A stretch of 64,000 nt of DNA from Streptosporangiales bacterium (GTDB lineage Bacteria > Actinomycetota > Actinomycetes > Streptosporangiales > WHSR01), in contig WHSR01000006.1 in the NCBI GenBank assembly GCA_009379995.1, forward strand, positions 41,865 to 105,864, read 5' to 3'. The position numbers were made by a program, and so were the translations under genes. Positions 4,564 through 62,206 of the stretch are shown piece by piece. Positions within the stretch are counted from its first letter, which is position 1. Each line of letters begins with the position of its first letter. The notes under the pieces were generated by a model, which saw only the letters and a program-made list of their open reading frames with translations, did not search any database and was not told the DNA's origin.

Positions 4564-5903
4564 TCACACGATTCCCTCGGTCTTCATGCGCTCGAGCGCC
4601 GTGGCATGGGCCGCGACGATCTGGTCCAGCTCCGATTCGCCGTGAGCCGAACTCAGGAAGGCCAGGTGTACGGGCGAGGACAGGAACACACCCTCCCGCA
4701 GGAGAAGCGCCGCCAGCATCCTCGCCGCCACCTTGTCGCTGCCGTGCAGGTCGCGTACGTTCGCCGGCTTTGCGTCGGTGAAATGGAAGCCCCACAACGA
4801 TCCGGCCCCGGTGACGTGCGCCGAGATGCCGAGCCGGCTTACCAGCGCGGACAGCTCCGAACGGAGACGATCTCCGCGCGCCTCGAGCGTGGAGTAGATC
4901 TCGGGATTCTCCAGAAGAACGTCGAGCTGCGCGACTCCCGCGGCGGTGGTCATCGGGTTGGCGGCATGCGTGCCGCCCGCCACCACGGAAAGGCCATCGT
5001 CGCCGGCCAGCACCCTGTCCACGAGGTCCCCCCGCCCGCATACGGCTCCCACCGGAAGACCGCCACCCACGATCTTTCCGAAGACAGTCAGATCCGGCCG
5101 CACGCCGAGGAGGCCAGCCGCCCCTCCTGGCGCGAGCCGAAAGCCGGTGATGACCTCGTCAGCGATCAGCACGACGCCGCACTCCCGGCAGGCGTCGCCC
5201 ACGGCCTGGAGGAAGCGGCGCTCCGCGGGCAGGGCACCACCCCCGCCGAGGACGGGTTCCACGATGACGCAGGCGAGGTCCTCCGCGTGCTCCCGGATGA
5301 TCTCCGCCGCCCTGTCGCTGTTGAAGGGAAGCGTCACGACGGTGCCGGTGACCTCCGGCGGTACCCCGGCGCTGTCCGCGACGGCCGCGGGGCGATCGGC
5401 CGTGCCCCCCAGCTGTGTATAGCTGTGCAGCAAGAAGTCCTGCCCCCCGTGCCAGCCACCCTCGAACTTGGCGATCTTGCCCCGGCCCGTTGCGGCGCGG
5501 GCGAGGCGAAGCGCCGACAGGGTCGCCTCGGTCCGCTGGAAACGAAGATCACCCTCTCCGCCCCCGGCACGGAGGAAACGATGCGCCGGGCGAGCTCGTA
5601 CTCCCCCGTGCCCGGCGCTCCGAACTGGATGCCCCGGGTGAGCTGCTCGGCGATCGCGCGCTCCACCCGCTCGTGGCGGTGGCCGAGGATCAGCGGGCCG
5701 AATCCGAGGTTGCAGTCCAGGTACCGGCGGCCGTCCAGGTCATAGAGGTACGGGCCCTCGGCACGGACCGCGTACGTGGGCACCGGCCACCAGAAACGCG
5801 AACGGGTGGCCCCGCCCGGCACTACCTGACGAGCCTGCTCGTAGTGGGCGACGCTTTGCGGCAAGAGTTCGCGTATTTCCTTTTCCACCGGCTCCAGCAT
5901 CAT
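4564..5903 (-). pseudogene. Class-III aminotransferase (glutamate-1-semialdehyde aminomutase-like), split by a 1-nt frameshift near 5532
   Basis: The N-terminal ORF (5334..5921) ends ...GAERVIFVSSG. The expected continuation [40 protein letters not shown] is in the -1 frame and runs into ORF 4564..5433. ATG at 5903 has a GAGAGGA RBS; alternative GTG at 5921. Confidence 0.7.
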
Positions 5904-6026
5904 CTGGGCGTCCTCTCGCACGACCGGACAGTTTGATCATTATCCTAAAATTCCCATTTAGGGGAAACCATCCATAGCCGTGAAGCGACGAGGTGCCGGG
6001 AAGCCGGAGCGCGGTTGTGAAGGGGG

Positions 6027-12923: not shown

Positions 12924-12975
12924 CCTCGCTCTTGTCCGTGGTCTTGAATTTCTGCAAGATCACGGGCAAGAGGGG
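12924..12975. repeat. Palindromic repeat family A, short form (copy A2)
   Basis: CTCTTGTCCGTGGTCTTG - AATTTCTG - CAAGATCACGGGCAAGAG. Same outer arms as A1/A4 with the centre deleted. Confidence 0.75.
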
Positions 12976-13082
12976 AGCCGCGAGCAACGTTGACACGGAC
13001 CGCCGGCAAACGGTCCCTGCCGACGGGCATATCTCGGGACAGGGATCGCTGCCCCTTCGGGCAACCGCCGAGGCGGCCGGCC

Positions 13083-14993: not shown

Positions 14994-15081
14994 CCCCCCT
15001 TTCTTCAGTGATCTTTGCTATACCCCGCGTGCGAACGATCATTCACGGGAGGGATGCCAAGATCACGGGCGAGAGGGGCGG
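14994..15081. repeat. Palindromic repeat family A, diverged copy with enlarged centre (copy A3)
   Basis: The right arm AAGATCACGGGCGAGAGGGGCGG (15059-15081) closely matches A6. The left arm ...TTTCTTCAGTGATCTT (14994-15015) matches only in its inner part. Confidence 0.45.
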
Positions 15082-16808
15082 CCCTTGCGCAGGAAGGCGC
15101 GCAGCCGGTCCAGCGGCCAGGTGTTGATGACCTCGTCCCGGGTGAGCCAGCCCCGCTGTGCGGTGCCGACCCCGTACCGCAGGAAGGCCAGATGCCGGGT
15201 GGAGTGCGAGTCGCTGTCGATAGCGAAGTTGACCCCGTACCGCTTGGCCCGCAGGATGTGCTCGTCCTTCAGGTCGAGACGGTCGGGGAAGGAGTCGATC
15301 TCCAGCGCCGTACCGGTGCGCGCGCACGCCTCGAAGATCTCGTCGAGGTCGGCGTCGATTGGGGGGCGCTTGCCGATGAGCCGGGCCGTCGGGTGGCCGA
15401 TGATGTTGACGTACGGGTTCTCGCAGGCCCGTACGATCCGCCGGGTCAGCTCCTCGCGCGACTGGTTGAAGTGCGAGTGCACCGAGGCGATGCAGACGTC
15501 GAATCCCTGCAGGAACTCGGCGGGCCAGTCGACGTTCCCGTCCGGGTCGATGTTGAGCTCGCTGCCGTGCAGCAGCCGCATCTCCCCGTACTTTCCGTCG
15601 AGGGCCCGTAGCCGCTCCCGTTGCGCCAGCACCTTCTCGTCCGACATGCGCTGCATGTACAGGTTGGGCGCGTGGTCGGTGACCGCGTAGTACTCGTAGC
15701 CGCGCGTCGACGCGGCCTCGAGCATCTGCTCCAGCGTCGACAGCCCGTCGGTGAGGTCGGTGTGGGTGTGCAGGTCGCCGCGGATATCGTCCTCGGTGAC
15801 CAGCCGGGCGACCAGGTCGGGAAGCTCGCCCCGCACCGCGGCCTCCACCTCGCCCCGGTCCTCCCGGAGCGCCGGCGGGACCCACGGCAGCCCGAGCCGC
15901 TCGTACACCTCCTCCTCGGTCTCGGAGACGATCTTCTCCTCGGTCTCCGCGTCGAACAGGCCGTACTCGGACAGCTTCAGGCCCTGCCGCACGGCGATCT
16001 CCCGGGTGCGGATGTTGTGCGCCTTGGAACCGGTGAAGTACTGCAGCGCGGCGCCCCACGCGTCCGGCGCCACCACCCGCAGGTCGACCTGCAGCCCCTT
16101 GGTGGTACGAACCGAGCTCTTGGTGTCGCCGTGCGCGATCACCTCGTCCACGTACGACGCGGTCGTGAACGCGTCCATGAGCACCGCCGGGGCGCCGGAC
16201 GTCGCGAGGATGTCGATGTCGCCGATGGTCTCCCGCATCCGGCGCAGCGAGCCCGCGTACGTGCACCGCTCGCACCCGGTTACCTGGGACATCTCGGCCA
16301 CGATGTCCTCGGCGAGCTCCAACGCGACCGCCAGGTGCACCCGGTCGCCGGCCTGCTGCATGAGCTCGACGCCGTGCAGGATGTTCTCCTCGGTCTTCGA
16401 CCCGAAGCCCTTGAGTCCGTGCAACTTCCCCGCGTGGATGGCGTCCACGAGCTCGTCGATCGAGGCGATGCCCAGCTCCTCGTACAGGACCACCGCCTTC
16501 TTCGGCCCGAGGGTGGGTATCGCGGTTAGCTGGCGCACCCCGGCCGGGATCTTCGCGCGCAGCTCCTCCACCGCGGGCACGGTCCCGGTCTGGAGGTGCT
16601 CGAGGATCTTCTCGGCGATCGACTTGCCGACGTTCGGGATCTGCTGCAGCCCGGAGAGATCGAGGCGCGATATGTCCTCGTGGTAACCGCCGACGGCGCG
16701 GGCGGCCTTCTCGTAGGCGCGCGCCTTGTACGCCTCGCCGCCGGTGATCGAGATGAGGTCGGCGTACTCCTGCAGGAGCGCCCCGACCTCCTCGTTCGGC
16801 CGGCCCAT
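15063..16808 (-). CDS. polX: DNA polymerase/3'-5' exonuclease PolX (family X polymerase + PHP domain)
   Basis: N-terminal HhH/pol-beta region (YKARAYEKAARAV...IPNVGKSIAEKILE) and C-terminal PHP domain (GDLHTHTDLTDG..., ASVHSHF...). Confidence 0.9.
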   Translation of the reverse strand: MGRPNEEVGALLQEYADLISITGGEAYKARAYEKAARAVGGYHEDISRLDLSGLQQIPNVGKSIAEKILEHLQTGTVPAVEELRAKIPAGVRQLTAIPTLGPKKAVVLYEELGIASIDELVDAIHAGKLHGLKGFGSKTEENILHGVELMQQAGDRVHLAVALELAEDIVAEMSQVTGCERCTYAGSLRRMRETIGDIDILATSGAPAVLMDAFTTASYVDEVIAHGDTKSSVRTTKGLQVDLRVVAPDAWGAALQYFTGSKAHNIRTREIAVRQGLKLSEYGLFDAETEEKIVSETEEEVYERLGLPWVPPALREDRGEVEAAVRGELPDLVARLVTEDDIRGDLHTHTDLTDGLSTLEQMLEAASTRGYEYYAVTDHAPNLYMQRMSDEKVLAQRERLRALDGKYGEMRLLHGSELNIDPDGNVDWPAEFLQGFDVCIASVHSHFNQSREELTRRIVRACENPYVNIIGHPTARLIGKRPPIDADLDEIFEACARTGTALEIDSFPDRLDLKDEHILRAKRYGVNFAIDSDSHSTRHLAFLRYGVGTAQRGWLTRDEVINTWPLDRLRAFLRKGRPSRP

Positions 16809-16837: not shown

Positions 16838-17110
16838 TCAGCCCACCTCGCGGAGCAGCTTGTCCATGGCGAAGACCCGTTCGCGCAGCTCCGATACCTC
16901 CACCCGGAGCGTACGCAGCTCCTGCAGGGTCTTCGTCTGCTCGCCGGCCACCCGCTCGGCGAGCGCGCGGTAGTCCACCTCGCGTCCCGCGCAGCTCCTG
17001 GCGCGCAGCGTGGCGAAGCCCTGCCGGATGAGCACGGTCAGCACGACCGTCAGCGTCAACACCGTACCGGCGACCGCGATGGCCCCCACCAGATTGCCGT
17101 CGATATCCAT
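16838..17110 (-). CDS. Small single-pass membrane / coiled-coil protein (paralog 1)
   Basis: N-terminal TM helix (LVGAIAVAGTVLTLTVVLTVLI) and C-terminal LRTLRVEVSELRERVFAMDKLLREVG. Paralogous to 17241..17567. Confidence 0.55.
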   Translation of the reverse strand: MDIDGNLVGAIAVAGTVLTLTVVLTVLIRQGFATLRARSCAGREVDYRALAERVAGEQTKTLQELRTLRVEVSELRERVFAMDKLLREVG

Positions 17111-17240: not shown

Positions 17241-17567
17241 CTACCCGACCTCCCCGACCTCGCGGAGGAGCTTTTCCAGGGCGGCCATCCGCTCGCGCAG
17301 CTCGGCCAGCTCCACGCGCACGGTGCGCAGCTCCAGGGTGGGGCGCTGGGTGCGGCGCCATCGGGCGGGGGAAAGCAGGGTCTTTTTCTGCAGGTCGGTG
17401 GCGTTCTCGGCGAGCAGGCGGAAGTCGTCGGCGCCCGCCATCTCCGCCCGGGCCTGGGCACCCCGGGCCGCCGTGATGTACCTGACGACCGCGAGCACGA
17501 TGAACCCCGCCAGCGCCGGCAACCCCAGCCCGAGGATGAGCCCGATGAGGTTGCTGCTGATCTCCAC
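17241..17567 (-). CDS. Small single-pass membrane / coiled-coil protein (paralog 2, carries a 14-codon insertion)
   Basis: TM helix (LIGLILGLGLPALAGFIVLAVV) and C-terminal LRTVRVELAELRERMAALEKLLREVG. Contains the extra LSPARWRRTQRPTL segment. Confidence 0.55.
   Translation of the reverse strand: MEISSNLIGLILGLGLPALAGFIVLAVVRYITAARGAQARAEMAGADDFRLLAENATDLQKKTLLSPARWRRTQRPTLELRTVRVELAELRERMAALEKLLREVGEVG
17333..17375. repeat. 43-nt element S, copy 1 (inside CDS 17241..17567)
   Basis: CCAGGGTGGGGCGCTGGGTGCGGCGCCATCGGGCGGGGGAAAG is 42/43 identical to the reverse complement of 52609-52651. Confidence 0.85.
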
Positions 17568-27180: not shown

Positions 27181-28040
27181 CGCAGCGAGCCGGACGCCCC
27201 TTCGGCACCCTGGGTACTCCGTTCCGGTCTGGGTTCCGGTCTGGGTTCCGGTCTGGGCTCCCGAACCTCCTCGCCGAGTCTGGGCTCGGTGAGGCCGAGA
27301 CCGTCGAGGTCGGCGACGAGCCGCGAGGCAAGGTAACGGTGTCCGTCACGGGTGGGGTGGATGCCGTCGGGCATGACGTACCTCGCCGCGTTGCCGGTCT
27401 TGTCCTTGCGGTTCCCGGTGATCCACCGCTCGGCTAGCGGGTCGATGAACGGTACGCCGGCCGTCCCCGTCGCGGACTTCATCGCGTCCCGGATGGCGGG
27501 GGCCTCGGGGCGCGGGTCCCCGCCCCACAGCGGGCCGATGACCAGGACGTGGGTGTCCGGCCAGACCCGTGAGACCTGGGCGAGCAGGGACAGGGTCGCC
27601 GCCTCGACCTTCGGCGGCTCGCGCCGCCAGTCGTTGTGCCCCCCGGCGATGATCAGCATGTCCGGGGCGGGTCGCCAGGCGAGCTGATCGATGAACAACT
27701 CGGCGAACCTCTTGCCGAGACTGCCCCCGTTCACCAGGCCGGTGCCGCTGTGGCCAGCGACGACCACCTGCCAGCCCAGCAGCCGCGCCGTCTCGGTCGC
27801 ATAGGTCTGGTGGGTGTCGACCCGCCCGCTGCCGGTGGCGTAACTCTCGCCGAGGAACATCACCACCGGCGGCCGCTGGACGGGCAGTACCGGCGAGGCC
27901 GGCGCTGGCCTCGCCGGCCGGCCTCCACCGAGACATCCGCCCAGCGACGCCGCCACCAGTGCCGCCAGGGCGCACGCGCACAGCCGGGGCTTGTGGTATC
28001 GGGTCAGCGCGGCCCCCGGAGGACGTAGGCTGCGTTCCAT
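27165..28040 (-). CDS. SGNH/GDSL-family hydrolase lipoprotein
   Basis: Lipobox ...AASLGGC. FLGESYATGSG (block I Ser), HSGTG, IIAGGHNDW and DGIHPT (block V). C-terminal EPRPEPRPEPRPE repeat. ATG at 28040 (alternative TTG at 28049). Confidence 0.75.
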   Translation of the reverse strand: MERSLRPPGAALTRYHKPRLCACALAALVAASLGGCLGGGRPARPAPASPVLPVQRPPVVMFLGESYATGSGRVDTHQTYATETARLLGWQVVVAGHSGTGLVNGGSLGKRFAELFIDQLAWRPAPDMLIIAGGHNDWRREPPKVEAATLSLLAQVSRVWPDTHVLVIGPLWGGDPRPEAPAIRDAMKSATGTAGVPFIDPLAERWITGNRKDKTGNAARYVMPDGIHPTRDGHRYLASRLVADLDGLGLTEPRLGEEVREPRPEPRPEPRPERSTQGAEGASGSLRHQGP

Positions 28041-28767: not shown

Positions 28768-28850
28768 CGGTTCTGACGCCGAGATCTATGTTGTGGGGGC
28801 CATTTTGTCCGATTCGGACCCCCGCAACATAGATCTCGGCGTCAGAACCG
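28768..28850. repeat. Palindromic repeat family B (copy B1, extended 32-bp arms)
   Basis: CGGTTCTGACGCCGAGATCTATGTTGTGGGGG ... CCCCCGCAACATAGATCTCGGCGTCAGAACCG, 31/32 complementary, 19-nt centre. Confidence 0.9.
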
Positions 28851-30006
28851 CCCTCTCGTCGGGTCGGTGTACGAGCTCGGAGTCGATGTAGTCCCGGGCG
28901 GCCTCGAACAGGTCGACGTCCCGGCGGGACCGCTCGGAGAGGTACCAACGGTGTTCGAGCACCTCGTGGTAGATCTCCGCCGGCTCCAGCTTCCCCCGCA
29001 GCTCCGTCGGCACCATGCGCACCACCGGCTCGAACGCCTCGGTCAGCCATCGGCGTGCGACGACCGCCGCGCTCGGTGGGTCGCCGTGCGGGTACTTGGC
29101 CGCCTGGAAGCAGTCCAGGTCGGCGGCGAGGCGTCGGGCCTGGTTCTCCTGCACCGACAGCCCGGCCAGCTGCTCCATCCGCCGCCGGTTGTGCCCGGGC
29201 TCGACGACCTGCGTCCGCAGCACGAGCCGCTCGCCGGTCTCGTCGGCATGGATCTGGATCTCCCCGACGTCGTACCCGAGCTGGTTGAGCCGGCAGAGCC
29301 GCCCGTCGATGCGATACCGCTCGTCGGCCGCGAAGACCTCCTCACGGGTGAGCTCGTTCCACAGCGACTCGTAGCGCTCCCTGACGTCGAGCGCCATCTC
29401 TACCGGGTCGATCCCCGGGTCGAGCAGCTCGCCGGCGATGTTCTCGACAGCGATCTCCAGGTCGTATGCCCGCTGCCCGTCGCTCACCCCCAGGTGCAGC
29501 TCACCGGTCTCCGCGTCGACCAGGTAGGCCTCCAGCGCCCCGGCGTCGCGACGGAACAGCGTGTTGGACAGCGAGCAGTCACCCCAGTAGAAGCCGGCCA
29601 GGTGGAGGCGAACGAGCATCTCGACCAGGGCATCGAGGAGCTTGCTGGTCATCTGCGGCTCGAGCCGGTAGCAGAACAGGGCACGATAGGGCAGCGAGAA
29701 CTGCAGGTGCCGGGTGACCAGAGCCGCCTCGAGCGACTCGTCCTCCTCCCCGTCCCGCCGGTCGGTGACCACACCCACCGCCTCCACGACCGGGATGTCC
29801 CGGCGGGCGAGTCCGCGCAGCATGCGGTACTCCCGCTCGGCTATCTGCCGCGGGATCTCCTTGATCGCGTAAACCCGGCCGGCGTGCCGCGAGATGCCCC
29901 GCGGCAGCGCGACGAGACGGTCGGCCGGCCACCGCTCCAGCGGGGTCGACCACGGTAGGTCGAGGAGGTCCGGCTGCCCGGGCCCGGGCGTGAGGTGAAG
30001 CCGCAC
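28786..30006 (-). CDS. DUF4032 / Kdo-WaaP-like kinase-fold protein
   Basis: ...YAIKEIPRQIAEREYRMLRGLARRDIPVVEAVG... and GFYWGDCSLSNTLFRRD...YLVDAETGE resemble the RIO/Kdo kinase core. The last ~20 codons and the stop lie inside repeat B1. Confidence 0.7.
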   Translation of the reverse strand: MRLHLTPGPGQPDLLDLPWSTPLERWPADRLVALPRGISRHAGRVYAIKEIPRQIAEREYRMLRGLARRDIPVVEAVGVVTDRRDGEEDESLEAALVTRHLQFSLPYRALFCYRLEPQMTSKLLDALVEMLVRLHLAGFYWGDCSLSNTLFRRDAGALEAYLVDAETGELHLGVSDGQRAYDLEIAVENIAGELLDPGIDPVEMALDVRERYESLWNELTREEVFAADERYRIDGRLCRLNQLGYDVGEIQIHADETGERLVLRTQVVEPGHNRRRMEQLAGLSVQENQARRLAADLDCFQAAKYPHGDPPSAAVVARRWLTEAFEPVVRMVPTELRGKLEPAEIYHEVLEHRWYLSERSRRDVDLFEAARDYIDSELVHRPDERAVLTPRSMLRGSESDKMAPTT

Positions 30007-30086: not shown

Positions 30087-30159
30087 GCCGGCGTAGCTCA
30101 ACTGGCAGAGCAGGTGCCTTGTAAGCACCAGGTTGGGGGTTCGAGTCCTCTCGCCGGCT
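30087..30159 (+). tRNA. tRNA-Thr (anticodon TGT)
   Basis: Cloverleaf read by hand. Acceptor GCCGGCG/CGCCGGC; D-arm GCTC..GAGC; anticodon stem GGTGC/GCACC with loop CTTGTAA; T-loop GGGGG-TTCGAGT-CCTCT. No encoded CCA. Confidence 0.85.
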
Positions 30160-30195
30160 CTCGCCGACTCCGCGTACCGATCGGCTGGGTGCCCC

Positions 30196-32442: not shown

Positions 32443-32507
32443 CGCCGAGATCTATGTTATGGGTCCGTTTTGTCCTGTTTCGTACCCCCACAACATAGAT
32501 CTCGGCG
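32443..32507. repeat. Palindromic repeat family B (copy B2)
   Basis: CGCCGAGATCTATGTTATGGGT ... ACCCCCACAACATAGATCTCGGCG. Lies between convergent stops (32435 and 32523). Confidence 0.85.
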
Positions 32508-37074: not shown

Positions 37075-37097
37075 GACGTTCGCGCCGCCGTACGGCC

Positions 37098-37169
37098 CTG
37101 CCTTGGTCGTGATCTTGCAGAAATTCAACTCGGGCCGATTCAAATTTCTGCAAGATCACGGCCAAAGGG
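37098..37169. repeat. Palindromic repeat family A, long form (copy A4)
   Basis: CCTTGGTCGTGATCTTGCAGAAATT-CAACTCGGGCCGATTCA-AATTTCTGCAAGATCACGGCCAAAGG. Differs from A1 at a handful of positions. Confidence 0.9.
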
Positions 37170-43011: not shown

Positions 43012-44421
43012 TCAGTCCCGCCTGAGCTCCCAGCGGGAGCCGGACGGGGTGTCCTCGATGACGACGCCGGCCTCGGCGAGCCGGGCCCGGATGGCGTCGG
43101 CGGTCGGGTAGTCCTTCCGCGCCCGGGCCGCCTGCCGCTGCTCCAGCGCCACCGAGACGAGCTTGTCGACGACGTCGTACAGACCCTCGTCCCCGCGGCC
43201 GACCCACTGCGGGTCCAGCGGATCCAGCCCGAGCACGTCGAGCATGGCCCGGGTCTCGGCGAGGCGCAGCCCCACCGACTCCTTGTCGCCGCCCGCGAGC
43301 GCGTTGTTGCCGTCCCGCACCGCGCCGTGCACGACCGCGAGGGCCTGCGGCACGCCCAGGTCGTCGTCCATCGCGGCGGCGAACGCCGCGGGCAGCGGGG
43401 CGTCGGAAACGGCGGTCGGTGCGGAGACTTCCGTGGCCCGGGTGACGAACCCCTCGATCCGCCGGTACGCCGCGGCGGCCTCGTACAGCGCCTCCTCGGA
43501 GTAGTCGATCATCGACCGGTAGTGCGCCTGAGCGAGATAGTAGCGCAGCTCGACCGGGCGGACCTTCTTGACCAGCTCGGACACCAGCAGGGAGTTGCCG
43601 AGCGACTTGCTCATCTTCTCGCCACCCACCCTGAGCAGCGCGTTGTGCAGCCAGTACCGCGCGAAGCCGTCACCGGCCGCCCGCGATTGCGCGATCTCGT
43701 TCTCGTGGTGCGGAAAGATCAGGTCGACCCCGCCGGCGTGGATGTCGAAGGTCTCGCCCAGGTACTTGGTGGCCATCGCCGAGCACTCGAGGTGCCAGCC
43801 GGGGCGGCCGCGACCCCACGGCGTCTCCCACCACGGCTCGCCGGGCTTCTCCCCCTTCCACAGCGCGAAATCGCGCGGGTCGCGCTTGGCGGTGTCGGAG
43901 TCGGTGTCGGAGTCGGTGTCGCCGGCCGGGCGCATGTTCTCCAGACGCTGGTGGGACAGCGCGCCGTACTCCGCGTACGAGAGCACGTCGAAGTAGACGT
44001 CGCCGTCGGTCGGGTACGCGTGCCCGCGCTCGATCAGCCGGCGCATCAGCATGATCATCTCAGGAACGTGGCCGGTCGCCCGCGGCTCGACGGTCGGGGG
44101 CAGGCAGCCCAGCACGTTGTACGCCCAGGTGAACGCCTGCTGATTGCGCTCGGACACCATCCACCACGGAATGCCCTCGTGGTGGGCGACATGGATGATC
44201 TTGTCGTCGACGTCGGTGACGTTGCGGCAGAACGTCACCTCGTACCCGTTTCTTGCGAGCCAGCGACGCAGGACGTCGAAGGCGACGCCGGACCGGATGT
44301 GGCCGATGTGCGGAGCCGCCTGCACCGTGGCGCCACACAGGTAGAACGTGACCTTCCCCGGCGTCAGGGGGACGAACTCGCGGACCGTGCGGGTGCTGGT
44401 GTCGTACAGGTGCAGGCTCAC
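43012..44421 (-). CDS. cysS: Cysteine--tRNA ligase
   Basis: [17 protein letters not shown] (HIGH), GWHLECSAM and KMSKSLGN (KMSKS). Confidence 0.95.
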
Positions 44422-45335: not shown

Positions 45336-45402
45336 CCGCCGAGATCTATGTTGTGGGGCAAGTAATCGGGCAAAACGACCCCCGCAACATAGATCTCGGC
45401 GG
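45336..45402. repeat. Palindromic repeat family B (copy B3)
   Basis: CCGCCGAGATCTATGTTGTGGGG ... CCCCCGCAACATAGATCTCGGCGG. Starts 4 nt after the stop at 45332. Confidence 0.9.
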
Positions 45403-49378: not shown

Positions 49379-50068
49379 GTGGGGCTCAAGGGTGGCCGGG
49401 GCGATGACGAGGACTGCCTGCCGCCGGTCGACGTTGTCGTCCCCAACGATGCCCGCGAACTGGAGGCGGATGTCCGGGCGTACCACCGCGAGCTGCGACG
49501 ACGGCACAGGCGGCAACGCTGGACACGGCTGGCTCGCGGGCTGCGCCTACACGGCATCACCCTCCCGCTCGCCCTCGTCGCGCTCCTGCTCGTCGGGCTG
49601 AGTACCGCCCTCATGACGCTGCTCGGGCCACGTCCGACGTCCCGTCCGTCGCCGGCCGCACTGGCCAACCGGCCGCCGGCCGCGCCGGGCAAGGTCGGCG
49701 GCCTGCTCCCGGACACCGCGGTGGTAGTTGGCGAGGAGCGGGAGCGTACGAGGCAACTGCGCCCCGCGGTCGTCGCGCTGATCCCCTGGGGCTGCCGGTG
49801 CGATCGGGCGGCCGACGAGCTGTATCGACAGGCGCGGGCGTTCTCGCTGCCGGTCTACTTCGTGGCGAGCCGCCGCCCGGTTGACGAGCTGCGGCCGCTC
49901 ATCGGCACGGCGGGCCACGGGCTGGCGGTTCCGGTACACGACGGCCCGGGCACGCTGGAGTCGGCGTACCACGCCTCCGGCCTCACCGCGGTCCTCGTCC
50001 GCCGAGATCTATGTTGCGGGGGAGTCGAATCGGACAAATCGACCCCACAACATAGATCTCGCCGGTGA
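49379..50068 (+). CDS. Hypothetical single-pass membrane protein
   Basis: GGGAGG RBS before a GTG. TM helix ITLPLALVALLLVGLSTALMTLL. High GC3. The 3' end reads through repeat B4 and stops just after it. Confidence 0.5.
   Translation: MGLKGGRGDDEDCLPPVDVVVPNDARELEADVRAYHRELRRRHRRQRWTRLARGLRLHGITLPLALVALLLVGLSTALMTLLGPRPTSRPSPAALANRPPAAPGKVGGLLPDTAVVVGEERERTRQLRPAVVALIPWGCRCDRAADELYRQARAFSLPVYFVASRRPVDELRPLIGTAGHGLAVPVHDGPGTLESAYHASGLTAVLVRRDLCCGGVESDKSTPQHRSRR
49999..50065. repeat. Palindromic repeat family B (copy B4)
   Basis: CCGCCGAGATCTATGTTGCGGGGG ... CCCCACAACATAGATCTCGCCGG. Followed by a 12-nt tandem TCTCGCCGGTGA x2 plus a variant (50057-50092). Confidence 0.9.
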
Positions 50069-52124: not shown

Positions 52125-53289
52125 TCACGGCCGGTTCCGCCCGGACCTGCGCATCTCCTTGTGGATGATCTTCCATTGGCGGGTACGCTCGGCCCGGAGC
52201 CGGGCGTCGGTGCGGCTCGCCATCCACGCCGCCTCCCGACGCAGCTTGCGCCAGCTGGCCAACCGCCGCTCGGGTAGCTCACCCGCCTCGACGGGCCGCC
52301 CGTACCGCACAGTCCGGCTCGGTGTCGTGTACGCAGTCGGAGAAGCGGCAGCCGCCGGCCAACTCTTCGATGTCGGCGAACGCCTGGGAGAGACCCTCGT
52401 CGGCCTGGTAGAGGCCGATCCGGCGCAGAGCGGGTGTGTCGATGACGAGGCCACCCGCCGGCAGCATCAGCAACTCGCGATGCGTCGTCGTGTGACGGCC
52501 CCGTCCGTCCGACGCGCGCACCGACTGGATGTCCATCAACTCGACCCCGGCGAGCGCGTTGACAAGCGTGGACTTCCCCGACCCCGACGGCCCGAGCAGC
52601 ACAGCGGTCTTTCCCCCGCCCGATGGCGCCGCAGCCAGCGCCCCACCCTGGCCCGGCCGCAGCCGTACCGCCTCGAGCCCGTCGAGCCCGCTTCCCGCGA
52701 CGACAGAAACGGCGTGCACCTCGGCGCCGGGGGCAGCCGCCGTAACCTCGGCGACCAGCCGGTGCGCGTCGGCGTCGCCGAGCAGGTCGGCCTTGGTGAC
52801 GAGGACGACGGGTCGGGCGCCGCTCTCCCACGCGAGCGTGAGCAGGCGCTCGATCCGGCCCAGATCGGTATCCGGATACGCCGGCTCGGTCACGAAGGCG
52901 ATATCGACGTTGGCGGCGAGCACCTGGCCGCGGGAGTCGCCGGACAGGCCACCGCGTGACCCCCGTGCGACGCCGCCCCGGACGAAGGCGGTACGGCGAG
53001 GCAGCACGGCGGCCACCTCGCGCCGTCCGTCGGGGGACCGACGGACCGCCACCCAGTCACCCGCGCACGGGAGGGCCCGCAGGGCGTCGGACCGGTAGAC
53101 GGCGCGGAGGTCGGCGTCCGCGGACAACACATCACAGACGTCCCTGTCGACGCGCGCGACGCGGGCGGGCGTCAGGTCGTCGGCGTCGTACGGCGCGAAA
53201 GCGGCCGCCCAGCCGTCGTCCCAGCCGAGACCGGGAAGTCGCGACGAGGAGAAGTCACAAGACGAGGAATCAGAAGAAACGAGAGCCAA
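52125..53289 (-). pseudogene. rsgA: Ribosome small-subunit-dependent GTPase RsgA, reading frame broken by one extra C (52293-52295); possibly a sequencing error
   Basis: ORF 52279..53289 carries VLVTKADL, LLGPSGSGKSTLVNAL and the zinc knuckle GCRFSDCVHDTEPDCAV. The expected tail AVEAGELPERRLASWRKL... continues in ORF 52125..52454 after removal of one C. Confidence 0.75.
52609..52651. repeat. 43-nt element S, copy 2 (inside rsgA)
   Basis: CTTTCCCCCGCCCGATGGCGCCGCAGCCAGCGCCCCACCCTGG is the reverse complement of 17333-17375 with one mismatch. Confidence 0.85.
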
Positions 53290-60584: not shown

Positions 60585-60593
60585 CGTCCCGCC

Positions 60594-60644
60594 CCGCCCT
60601 TCTTGCCCGTGATCTTTCTGCAAGATCACGGGCAAGAAGGGCGG
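60594..60644. repeat. Palindromic repeat family A, short form (copy A6)
   Basis: Perfect 23-bp stem CCGCCCTTCTTGCCCGTGATCTT / AAGATCACGGGCAAGAAGGGCGG with 5-nt loop TCTGC. Lies between convergent stops. Confidence 0.9.
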
Positions 60645-60652
60645 CAAGAGGG

Positions 60653-61522: not shown

Positions 61523-62206
61523 TCAGCCGCTGGAGGCCGGGCTTGGCGTCGCCGTCTCCGCGTCCGCACCGCTGCCTTTCCGCTCGCTGCCTTTCCGCTC
61601 GCCGCCCTTCCTTTCGCGGCCGGCCCTCTCGGAAGCGGGACCCGGCGAGCCGGTCGGCGAACCGGTGGGTGAGGCGGTCGGGGACGGCGGCGGGCTCGTC
61701 GGCGCGGGGAATGACGTGTAGAGGTCGGCGTACGGCATCACCGGCGTATTCACCTCAACGGTCCCGGCCTGCTCGAACTCGAAGGCGAGCCGGACGTACT
61801 GGCCACCGCTCAAGTTCCTGGTCAGATCCTGCAGGGTCAGAGGGGGACCGCCCTCTCCGGGGCGGACGGGCTCGCTCACCGGCAGGGTGAGCCGGTCGCC
61901 AGGGATCTCCACCGAGCGCGCGGTGCCGGGGGCCGTCACCGAGACCAGGTCGTCGGGCTGGGCGCGGCCGTTGATCAGGACCAGGTAGATCGGGGCGGAT
62001 TCGCCGGCGGGAATCGTCTCGCCGGGTCCTGGGCCCAGCACGAAGACGTTCCTCAGCAGAATGCCGCGCAGCGACGCGTTCTCGCCGTTTGCCAGGACGG
62101 ATTGTGCCGCGTCCCCGCCGGATCCCGCACAGCCCGCGAGCAGAGACACGAGCGCTGCGGCGACCGCGAGGGCAGGTCCCCGCGCAACACGACCCCTCGA
62201 CCTCAC
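61523..62206 (-). CDS. Lipoprotein with a Pro/Ser/Thr-rich and ERKG-repeat tail
   Basis: GTG with GGGAGGG RBS. Lipobox LVSLLAGC. The tail ...PTSPPPSPTASPTGSPTGSPG...RERKGGERKGSERKGS is encoded by 15-nt tandem repeats. Confidence 0.65.
   Translation of the reverse strand: MRSRGRVARGPALAVAAALVSLLAGCAGSGGDAAQSVLANGENASLRGILLRNVFVLGPGPGETIPAGESAPIYLVLINGRAQPDDLVSVTAPGTARSVEIPGDRLTLPVSEPVRPGEGGPPLTLQDLTRNLSGGQYVRLAFEFEQAGTVEVNTPVMPYADLYTSFPAPTSPPPSPTASPTGSPTGSPGPASERAGRERKGGERKGSERKGSGADAETATPSPASSG

Follow-up and report, generated by a model that had tools for sequence, protein, structure and literature searches.

Heterocystous cyanobacteria reportedly carry small dispersed repeats (SDRs), sequences of 21-27 nt that occur as clean insertions in many contexts and have no classical transposon ends (Elhai et al. 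2008, Genome Res 18:1484, cited in PMC3116915). These SDRs are said to be highly repeated and to be found in cyanobacteria only, several of their families having a hairpin that is supported by covariation. Microhomology-mediated template switching of the FoSTeS/MMBIR kind and insertions of the Pol-theta type give short, templated, and often inverted inserts with 1-4 nt of microhomology. The small duplications that go with FoSTeS/MMBIR cluster within about 100 nt and the templates usually lie within a few hundred bases, and most descriptions of these events come from eukaryotes and from amplification in E. coli. For such templated inserts see PMC12426944 and PMC7954356. REP and REPIN sequences, with about 20-40 nt per REP, are G+C-rich, palindromic, and extragenic, have no target-site duplication (TSD), are present in hundreds of copies, and are linked to a gene for RAYT, the transposase that mobilises them (PMC3116915). 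The Rickettsia palindromic elements (RPEs) are about 100-150 bp long, and belong to several families with tens of copies (Ogata et al. 2000, reviewed in PMC10969869). In Streptomyces ambofaciens, when breaks made by I-SceI were repaired by NHEJ, inserts of 30, 42, and 83 bp from the organism's own genome were found at the scars (Hoff et al. 2018, Sci Rep; PMC5869714). The donors of these scar inserts were nearby as well as distant loci, and the inserts came with 0-6 nt of microhomology or with changes of 1-4 nt (PMC5869714).

The 64-kb window, which is the whole stretch of DNA that was analysed, contains at 17333-17375 on the plus strand a 43-nt sequence, CCAGGGTGGGGCGCTGGGTGCGGCGCCATCGGGCGGGGGAAAG, that matches the reverse complement of 52609-52651 at 42 of 43 positions, the sole mismatch being one G/C difference. 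This identity had been reported in the initial annotation and it held: besides the two copies there was no third match in the window at up to 3 mismatches and no degenerate copy by sensitive blastn at word size 7, and the number of matches expected by chance was 0.00 in 100 dinucleotide-preserving shuffles of the window. Copy 1 is translated as LSPARWRRTQRPTL within an ORF of 108 aa; copy 2, for which the unit's opposite strand is read, gives QGGALAAAPSGGGK within rsgA. Since the minus strand encodes both hosts, the unit is inverted between them, which agrees with the opposite orientation in the earlier reading. The copies are 35 kb apart. The genes, the copies, and the segments that were gained are as follows, where L001 and L002 are contigs that carry the orthologue of the small gene and L003 is the contig with the closest orthologue of rsgA.

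17241..17567, minus strand: host gene 1, a small membrane-anchored coiled-coil protein of 108 aa
16838..17110, minus strand: tandem paralogue of host gene 1, no insert, the empty-site reference within the genome (cagctc-ctg-cagggtctt)
17333..17375, plus strand: copy 1 of the shared 43-nt stretch, 42/43 identity, 39-column gap in L001/L002 and both paralogues
17337-17375: segment gained in copy 1 relative to orthologues, 39 nt, GGT...AAAG
17335-17374: equivalent description of the segment gained in copy 1, 40 nt, AGGGT...GGAAA, which replaces one T
52279..53289, minus strand: host gene 2, an rsgA-type circularly permuted GTPase (PF03193, E=1e-35)
52609..52651, minus strand: copy 2 of the shared 43-nt stretch, inverted, 39-column gap in L003
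52609-52647: segment gained in copy 2, 39 nt, cleanly between the rsgA codons CAG (Gln) and ACC (Thr)

When the relatives of the small protein were examined it was found that its only close orthologue (P0002), which belongs to the syntenic Logan contigs L001 and L002, lacks the segment, and the orthologous DNA aligns with a gap of 39 columns. The gene order in these contigs is a GCV_T gene, two small genes, and PolX. The family of the small protein was taken as 215 cluster representatives from an exhaustive profile search, and the last six insert columns were occupied in 0 of 151 members (the best 150 of the 215 plus the paralogue); the single family member with an insert at that place (P0173) has 7 aa there and they are unrelated. 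The tandem paralogue at 16838..17110 had been said to be without the segment and this is the case. The closest relatives of the RsgA of the window are from Actinomadura, Thermomonospora, and Streptosporangium, and the segment is absent from 21 of 21 aligned RsgA orthologues and was found in 0 of 119 RsgA homologues. The spacing of the TK.DL (G4) motif to the P-loop is 68 residues here compared to 50-65 residues in these 119 homologues, and the DNA of the closest rsgA orthologue (79% protein identity) aligns with one gap of 39 columns and one gap of 9 columns. By this comparison both copies are evidently lineage-specific insertions into unrelated genes, the orthologues and the whole families being without them. 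Between the host genes and their nearest relatives identity is 63-79%, whereas the two copies match each other at 42/43, which indicates that the insertions are recent. The proteins of the window are singletons at 90% identity in a collection of 15 billion proteins, and the source organism is of an otherwise unsampled lineage.

The sites with and without the segment, written in the orientation of the unit, are the following.

rsgA, empty site: CCGGGC-CA(A/G)-ACC
rsgA, filled site: CCGGGC-CAG-[39 nt]-ACC
Small gene, empty site: CAGCTC-CTG-CAGGGT (paralogue) and CAGCTC-CTG-TACGGT (L001)
Small gene, filled site: CAGCTC-CAG-[39 nt]-CAGGGT

An in-frame insertion of 42 nt had been proposed in the initial annotation. 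The unit is inserted and in frame, as proposed, but its size is 39-40 nt according to the gaps in the orthologues; the net gain at each locus is 39 nt (13 aa), and it is 39 and not 42 nt as the unit either stands in place of a Gln codon or adjoins one. The junction in rsgA is clean (CCAG/39 nt/ACC) and that in the small gene is imprecise, being either 40 nt in place of one T or a 39-nt insertion together with a T-to-A change. One formula fits both sites, namely CC-W-G becoming CC-[AGGGTGGGGCGCTGG(G/C)TGCGGCGCCATCGGGCGGGGGAAA]-G, where the bracketed piece is a 40-mer. The microhomology at the junctions is CC / G (or CCAG / AG), that is, 1-4 nt. The ends of the inserted piece are equal at both loci to within 1 nt, and equal ends argue for a discrete piece of DNA and against a random patch. 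CAGGGT does occur twice at copy 1 and this had been taken for a 6-bp target duplication; the first CAGGGT is, however, part of the shared unit and copy 2 is then followed by ACCGCT. A TSD is absent from both loci, the empty sites showing a clean gain of 39 nt in rsgA or 40 nt for 1 in the small gene. There are no terminal inverted repeats (TIR) either, as the one end, AGGGTGGGGCG..., does not recur inverted at the other, ...GGGCGGGGGAAA. No significant hairpin was found in the unit when it was folded as single-stranded DNA (z of -0.4 to -1.8 against shuffles), and its RNA fold was no different from that of shuffles (z of 0 to -1.1). The left junction reads CCAGG, yet an origin by Dcm-Vsr or restriction was dropped as CCWGG is not depleted (145 observed for 150 expected, and 153 for 155).

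With regard to composition, copy 1 has five runs of G of at least 3 nt and copy 2 has four, and the 43-nt windows in the same 64 kb that reach 5 or 4 such runs are 0.07% and 0.6%, respectively. A quadruplex was not preferred for the unit by the gquad model of ViennaRNA, so it is the unusual density of G-runs alone that stands. The third-position G+C of the unit is poor in the rsgA frame (10/14) as against 12/14 in the frame of the other strand. That the unit has no stop in any of the six frames, to which attention had been drawn earlier, is true; it is not special, given that 40% of 39-nt windows share this property at 70% G+C.

Host gene 1 encodes 108 aa where a typical member of its family has 85-92 aa, and the insert makes up residues 65-77, which contain two prolines and fall within the conserved helix ...KT(L/V)-QELRT... 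Thirteen residues with two prolines in a conserved helix are probably damaging to the small protein because the length of the insert is not a multiple of the heptad; the tandem paralogue is intact. Next to both small-protein genes lies the gene for PolX, a family-X DNA polymerase with a PHP domain (15063-16808, minus strand), and it is placed likewise in L001. This adjacency of PolX to the insertion is probably a coincidence and is not evidence for end joining.

In RsgA the insert is at about residues 213-226, in the loop ahead of the beta-strand that leads into the P-loop GPSGSGKST. In an AlphaFold model it is modelled as coil with pLDDT<50 between a helix (205-208) and a strand (228-232), and the loop is predicted to be disordered and tolerant of indels. 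Two RsgA homologues (P0051 and P0077) have independent Gly/Ser-rich expansions of the same loop. Read in the rsgA frame, the insert and the Thr that follows it (52600-52650, minus strand, residues ~220-240) give APSGGGKT, which fits the Walker-A pattern [AG]x4GK[ST] and sits 13 residues upstream of the true P-loop. The rsgA gene is also frameshifted further on:

52293..52295, minus strand: run CCC, one extra C (CC to CCC) that shifts the rsgA frame

After this frameshift the rsgA ORF ends in ...RAARRGG and a stop, and the conserved C-terminus of RsgA (LPERRLASWRKLRREAAWMASRTDARLRAE..., 50 residues) is undamaged in the ORF 52125..52454 (minus strand). The extra C is either a sequencing error or the mark of a very recent pseudogene. 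A class-III aminotransferase gene (4564-5921, minus strand) is similarly split by a single-base frameshift at ...VSSG/TEAT..., with the halves otherwise intact: the ORF 5334..5921 is the N-terminal part (Pfam positions 11-94) and the ORF 4564..5433 is the C-terminal part (Pfam positions 180-370). A pair of single-base frameshifts in intact conserved genes of one 64-kb stretch suggests either errors in the consensus or pseudogenes of very recent date, and such errors do not explain a shared 43-nt string. A crude frameshift detector based on third-position G+C was too noisy for use. Whichever reading of the insertions is right, annotators should be aware of three alterations in this rsgA paralogue and of single-base frameshifts in the assembly.

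Each copy has a 9-nt tandem duplication close to it. Perfect tandem duplications with a unit length of 7-39 nt number 18 in the 64-kb window, and the only two whose unit is 9 nt are these:

17244..17261: CCCGACCTC twice in tandem (9 nt), C-terminal EVG-EVG of the small protein, 75 nt away from copy 1
52673..52690: TCGAGCCCG twice in tandem (9 nt), GLD-GLE within RsgA, 25 nt away from copy 2

Both duplications are on the 5' side of the copy in the unit's orientation. That at 17244-17261 is absent from the orthologue and the paralogue, and that at 52673-52690 is absent from L003, where it corresponds to the 9-column gap. A rough post-hoc estimate for finding such a duplication within 100 nt at both loci is about 10^-3. 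The clustering of lesions suggests one episode of error-prone synthesis or repair at each locus. It is possible, alternatively, that selection on both genes is relaxed, with which the frameshift in rsgA at 52293-52295 ahead of an intact C-terminus is consistent. Other perfect tandem repeats that lie in frame within genes are at 27221-27257 (12 nt x3, in a GDSL-lipase-like ORF), at 43890-43921 (12 nt x2.7, in cysS), and at 61570-61602 (15 nt x2.2, in a PCuAC-like ORF).

Further copies were searched for in genomes, metagenomes, viruses, plasmids, and proteins. A 20-mer scan of the GTDB representative genomes, one genome for each of 185,579 species, gave 12 single matches, all of which are chance matches with 24-30 of 43 positions identical and no extension past the seed. 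A 23-mer scan of JGI metagenomes gave 7 matches, all by chance, and some of these fall in what we take to be a conserved sugar-transferase motif, VGRW(L/V)RRL. Four exact-pattern scans of IMG/VR with both halves of the unit gave 0 matches, and blastn against plasmids (PLSDB) and phages (INPHARED) gave chance fragments only. At the protein level we used a peptide profile made from the unit peptides in three frames, with 14 conserved columns, X flanks, and W anchors and tuned in simulation; against 5.8 billion proteins it gave 12 word candidates and 0 at E<=10, and it missed the window's own two proteins as well, which makes its outcome uninformative. For the 64-kb window together with the nucleotide collections that were searched, the count of copies stands at two. 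The initial annotation had likened the insertions to RPE-type mobile elements, and had named as a point against its own reading the case that these two were the only copies. With no TIR, no hairpin, and no other copy in the searched collections, the mobile reading is not established.

The surroundings of the copies are those of a core housekeeping region. Pfam matches among the approximately 60 ORFs of the window include PolX, a YgfZ-like folate-binding protein, Dtd, CysS, IspF, and CarD, as well as an acyl-CoA dehydrogenase, a thiolase, and a PPDK-like enzyme. Among these ORFs Pfam gave no match to transposases, integrases, reverse transcriptases, Cas proteins, Ku, or LigD. The sole match to Rfam or by ARAGORN in the window is a tRNA-Thr (TGT) at 30087-30160 on the plus strand. 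The window also contains two families of palindromic repeats. The first, of about 65 nt, is at 28777-28841, 32443-32507, 45337-45401, and 50000-50064 and has conserved 23-nt arms (CGCCGAGATCTATGTTGTGGGGG ... CCCCCGCAACATAGATCTCGGCG) and variable loops; one copy (28768-28850) can form a 32-bp hairpin that is 97% complementary, and the repeats are mostly intergenic, one of them overlapping the 3' end of the ORF 28786..30006. The second (CCTTGGCCGTGATCTTGCAGAAATT ... AATTTCTGCAAGATCACGGCCAAGG) has full copies at 1231-1304 and 37096-37169, which are 94% identical over a 68-nt core, and half copies or solo arms at 12944-12984 and 60590-60650, and it is comparatively A+T-rich and intergenic.

How did the same piece come to be in two unrelated genes? 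The explanation that we tentatively prefer, while giving it somewhat less than an even chance, is that one short discrete piece of DNA was pasted twice in the course of error-prone break repair or template switching. The source piece would be of about 39-40 nt, (AG)GGTGGGGCGCTGG[G/C]TGCGGCGCCATCGGGCGGGGGAA(A), and it would have entered two chromosomal lesions during error-prone repair, leaving mutational scars and not a device. This could have happened by Ku/LigD-type end joining in which a small fragment was captured, or by a polymerase of low processivity that switched template on 1-4 nt of microhomology and then returned. The paste would leave no target duplication, and would give a clean junction in rsgA and an imprecise one in the small gene. 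Since each gene gains 39 nt and no frame of the piece has a stop, both would keep their reading frame. The 13 extra residues sit in the predicted disordered, indel-tolerant loop of RsgA and, in the other host, in the coiled coil of a small protein whose tandem paralogue is intact. We infer both the repair pathway and a source beyond the window. The junctions, with CC / G (CCAG / AG) microhomology and a 1-nt replacement, are of the end-joining type and untypical of transposition, and a repair scar would also agree with the lack of TSD, TIR, and any significant DNA or RNA fold, with a count of two copies that are inverted and 35 kb apart, with the 9-nt duplications nearby, with some 60 ORFs of housekeeping type that hold no mobile-element gene, and with the NHEJ precedent in S. 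ambofaciens (PMC5869714). Against it, both copies are derived and neither a native donor locus nor a third copy is seen in the window; the insert is also not templated from its own flanks of +/-300 nt (score 9-12 against a null mean of 10.7 for random 39-mers). Random capture of one locus into the other would rarely give equal ends at both loci, so that the same ends found twice call either for a discrete fragment that was cut identically twice or for a mechanism that recognises ends, as in a mobile element. The link to the 9-nt duplications, moreover, was drawn post hoc and has the alternative of relaxed selection.

The main rival is accordingly a non-autonomous mobile element, very small (39-40 nt) and low in copy number, that would function like an RPE or an SDR, and we consider it possible but rather unlikely. 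An enzyme encoded elsewhere would paste the element at CC-W-G without a TSD, possibly through a single-stranded intermediate, and its survival within genes would come from a length that is a multiple of three and from all frames being open. The equal ends with the one site formula CC-W-G, the derived state of both copies with no native source in sight, the recent date of the insertions (42/43 as against 63-79% for the hosts), and the unusual density of G-runs all agree with such an element. On the other hand, it would be known by two copies only in everything that was searched, TIR, TSD, and hairpin are all absent, one junction is imprecise, there is no mobile-element gene in 64 kb, and the common CCWG is a matter of 3-4 nt that could be due to chance. 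A more specific form of this idea, an ultra-small mobile unit of Actinomycetota (39-40 nt) that lacks inverted repeats, target duplication, and hairpin, is rich in G-runs, possibly as a quadruplex, inserts at CC-W-G sites into core genes, and leaves a 9-nt duplication nearby, we regard as doubtful; if it were true the mechanism of transposition or retro-insertion would be one so far undescribed. Were the piece mobile in either form, no smaller mobile unit would be known in the phylum. That the insertions of 39 nt, and perhaps the 9-nt duplications, are artefacts of assembly, polishing, or sequencing and not in the DNA of the organism is improbable. The two single-base frameshifts in otherwise intact conserved genes are in keeping with an artefact, and so is the source of the sequence, a draft contig (114,911 bp) whose organism was sampled once, but the known error modes are homopolymer indels and not the same in-frame 43-nt string at two loci in opposite orientation with one substitution. 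The junctions of both copies are embedded in unique sequence, and to our knowledge the unit matches no adapter. A further candidate is an origin in place at one locus, for example an expansion of the RsgA loop from its own P-loop coding region, followed by a single template-switch copy to the other. The Walker-A-like APSGGGKT ahead of the real P-loop and the independent expansion of the same loop in P0051 and P0077 invite this idea, and template switching on CCAG / AG, out of the small gene and into rsgA, would yield the clean 39-nt insertion that is observed. However, the insert is no more like the P-loop region in its DNA (score 12) than the null allows (95th percentile 14), for which reason a P-loop duplication was dropped as the main explanation; the third-position G+C in the rsgA frame is poor, and an older insertion would not have both its ends in common with a copied random stretch. 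An origin in place is improbable as well. As for an ancestral segment that was lost from all relatives, the initial annotation had looked to homologous residues in orthologues at both sites as the sign of it, and they were found in neither family; with 0/151 and 0/119 relatives carrying the segment and 0.00 matches expected, that explanation and chance similarity are refuted, their probability being negligible.

No described actinobacterial equivalent was found in the literature, which agrees with what had been surmised at the outset. With the systems mentioned above the unit compares as follows. As far as can be read from its sequence, the unit is without the structural hallmarks of MITEs, REPs, and IS200/IS605 derivatives. 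The likeness to the RPEs is that an in-frame repeat is found in unrelated housekeeping genes, to which it adds a tolerated peptide, and like an RPE or a MITE it is an in-frame insertion absent from orthologues; the difference is that the unit here is 39-40 nt, is not palindromic, has neither TIR nor a locus-specific TSD, and is known in two copies, both in the 64 kb, with 0 in GTDB representatives, JGI, IMG/VR, PLSDB, and INPHARED, where MITEs and RPEs have many. With the REPs it shares a similar length, richness in G+C, and the lack of a TSD, but it is intragenic, unstructured, and low-copy, and there is no Y1-transposase-like gene among the ORFs of the window. PATE-like derivatives of IS200/IS605, which transpose as single strands without a TSD, have subterminal hairpins at both ends and insert 3' of a fixed tetra- or pentanucleotide; in the unit such hairpins are missing, and both copies follow CCAG whereas the empty site of the small gene has CCTG. 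Like an SDR the unit is very short and has no classical transposon ends, but the high repetition, the hairpin, and the confinement to cyanobacteria that mark the SDRs are not seen for it. It resembles the inserts of FoSTeS/MMBIR in being short and inverted, with 1-4 nt of microhomology and a small duplication within 100 nt; those inserts do not recur with identical ends, and the unit does.

In an actinomycete there is a likeness to the capture of DNA at repair scars in S. ambofaciens, which is of the same size class (30/42/83 bp as against 39-40 nt) and has no TSD or TIR. As in captured filler DNA, the insert is some tens of bases long and identical to a sequence elsewhere in the genome (42/43, 35 kb apart), with microhomology in the range of 0-6 nt or a change of a few bases at the junction; unlike in filler capture no native donor locus was found in the window, where both copies are insertions and neither a third copy nor a local template was seen. 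The events in S. ambofaciens were single laboratory events at induced breaks and for each of them the native donor could be identified, whereas here two natural sites in core genes hold the same fixed piece, derived in each case and with the same ends, and the donor is not seen. If the repair reading is true, this would be a natural and fixed case of an outcome that has so far been seen only in laboratory assays of break repair, and actinomycete repair, by pasting short DNA into essential-type genes, would lead directly to new surface loops and indels in proteins. The same piece used twice, together with adjoining 9-nt duplications, would then be a possible signature in high-G+C genomes. Taken as a repair scar, the explanation that we prefer, the unit would be a natural form, and a new one, of an outcome of repair that is already known.
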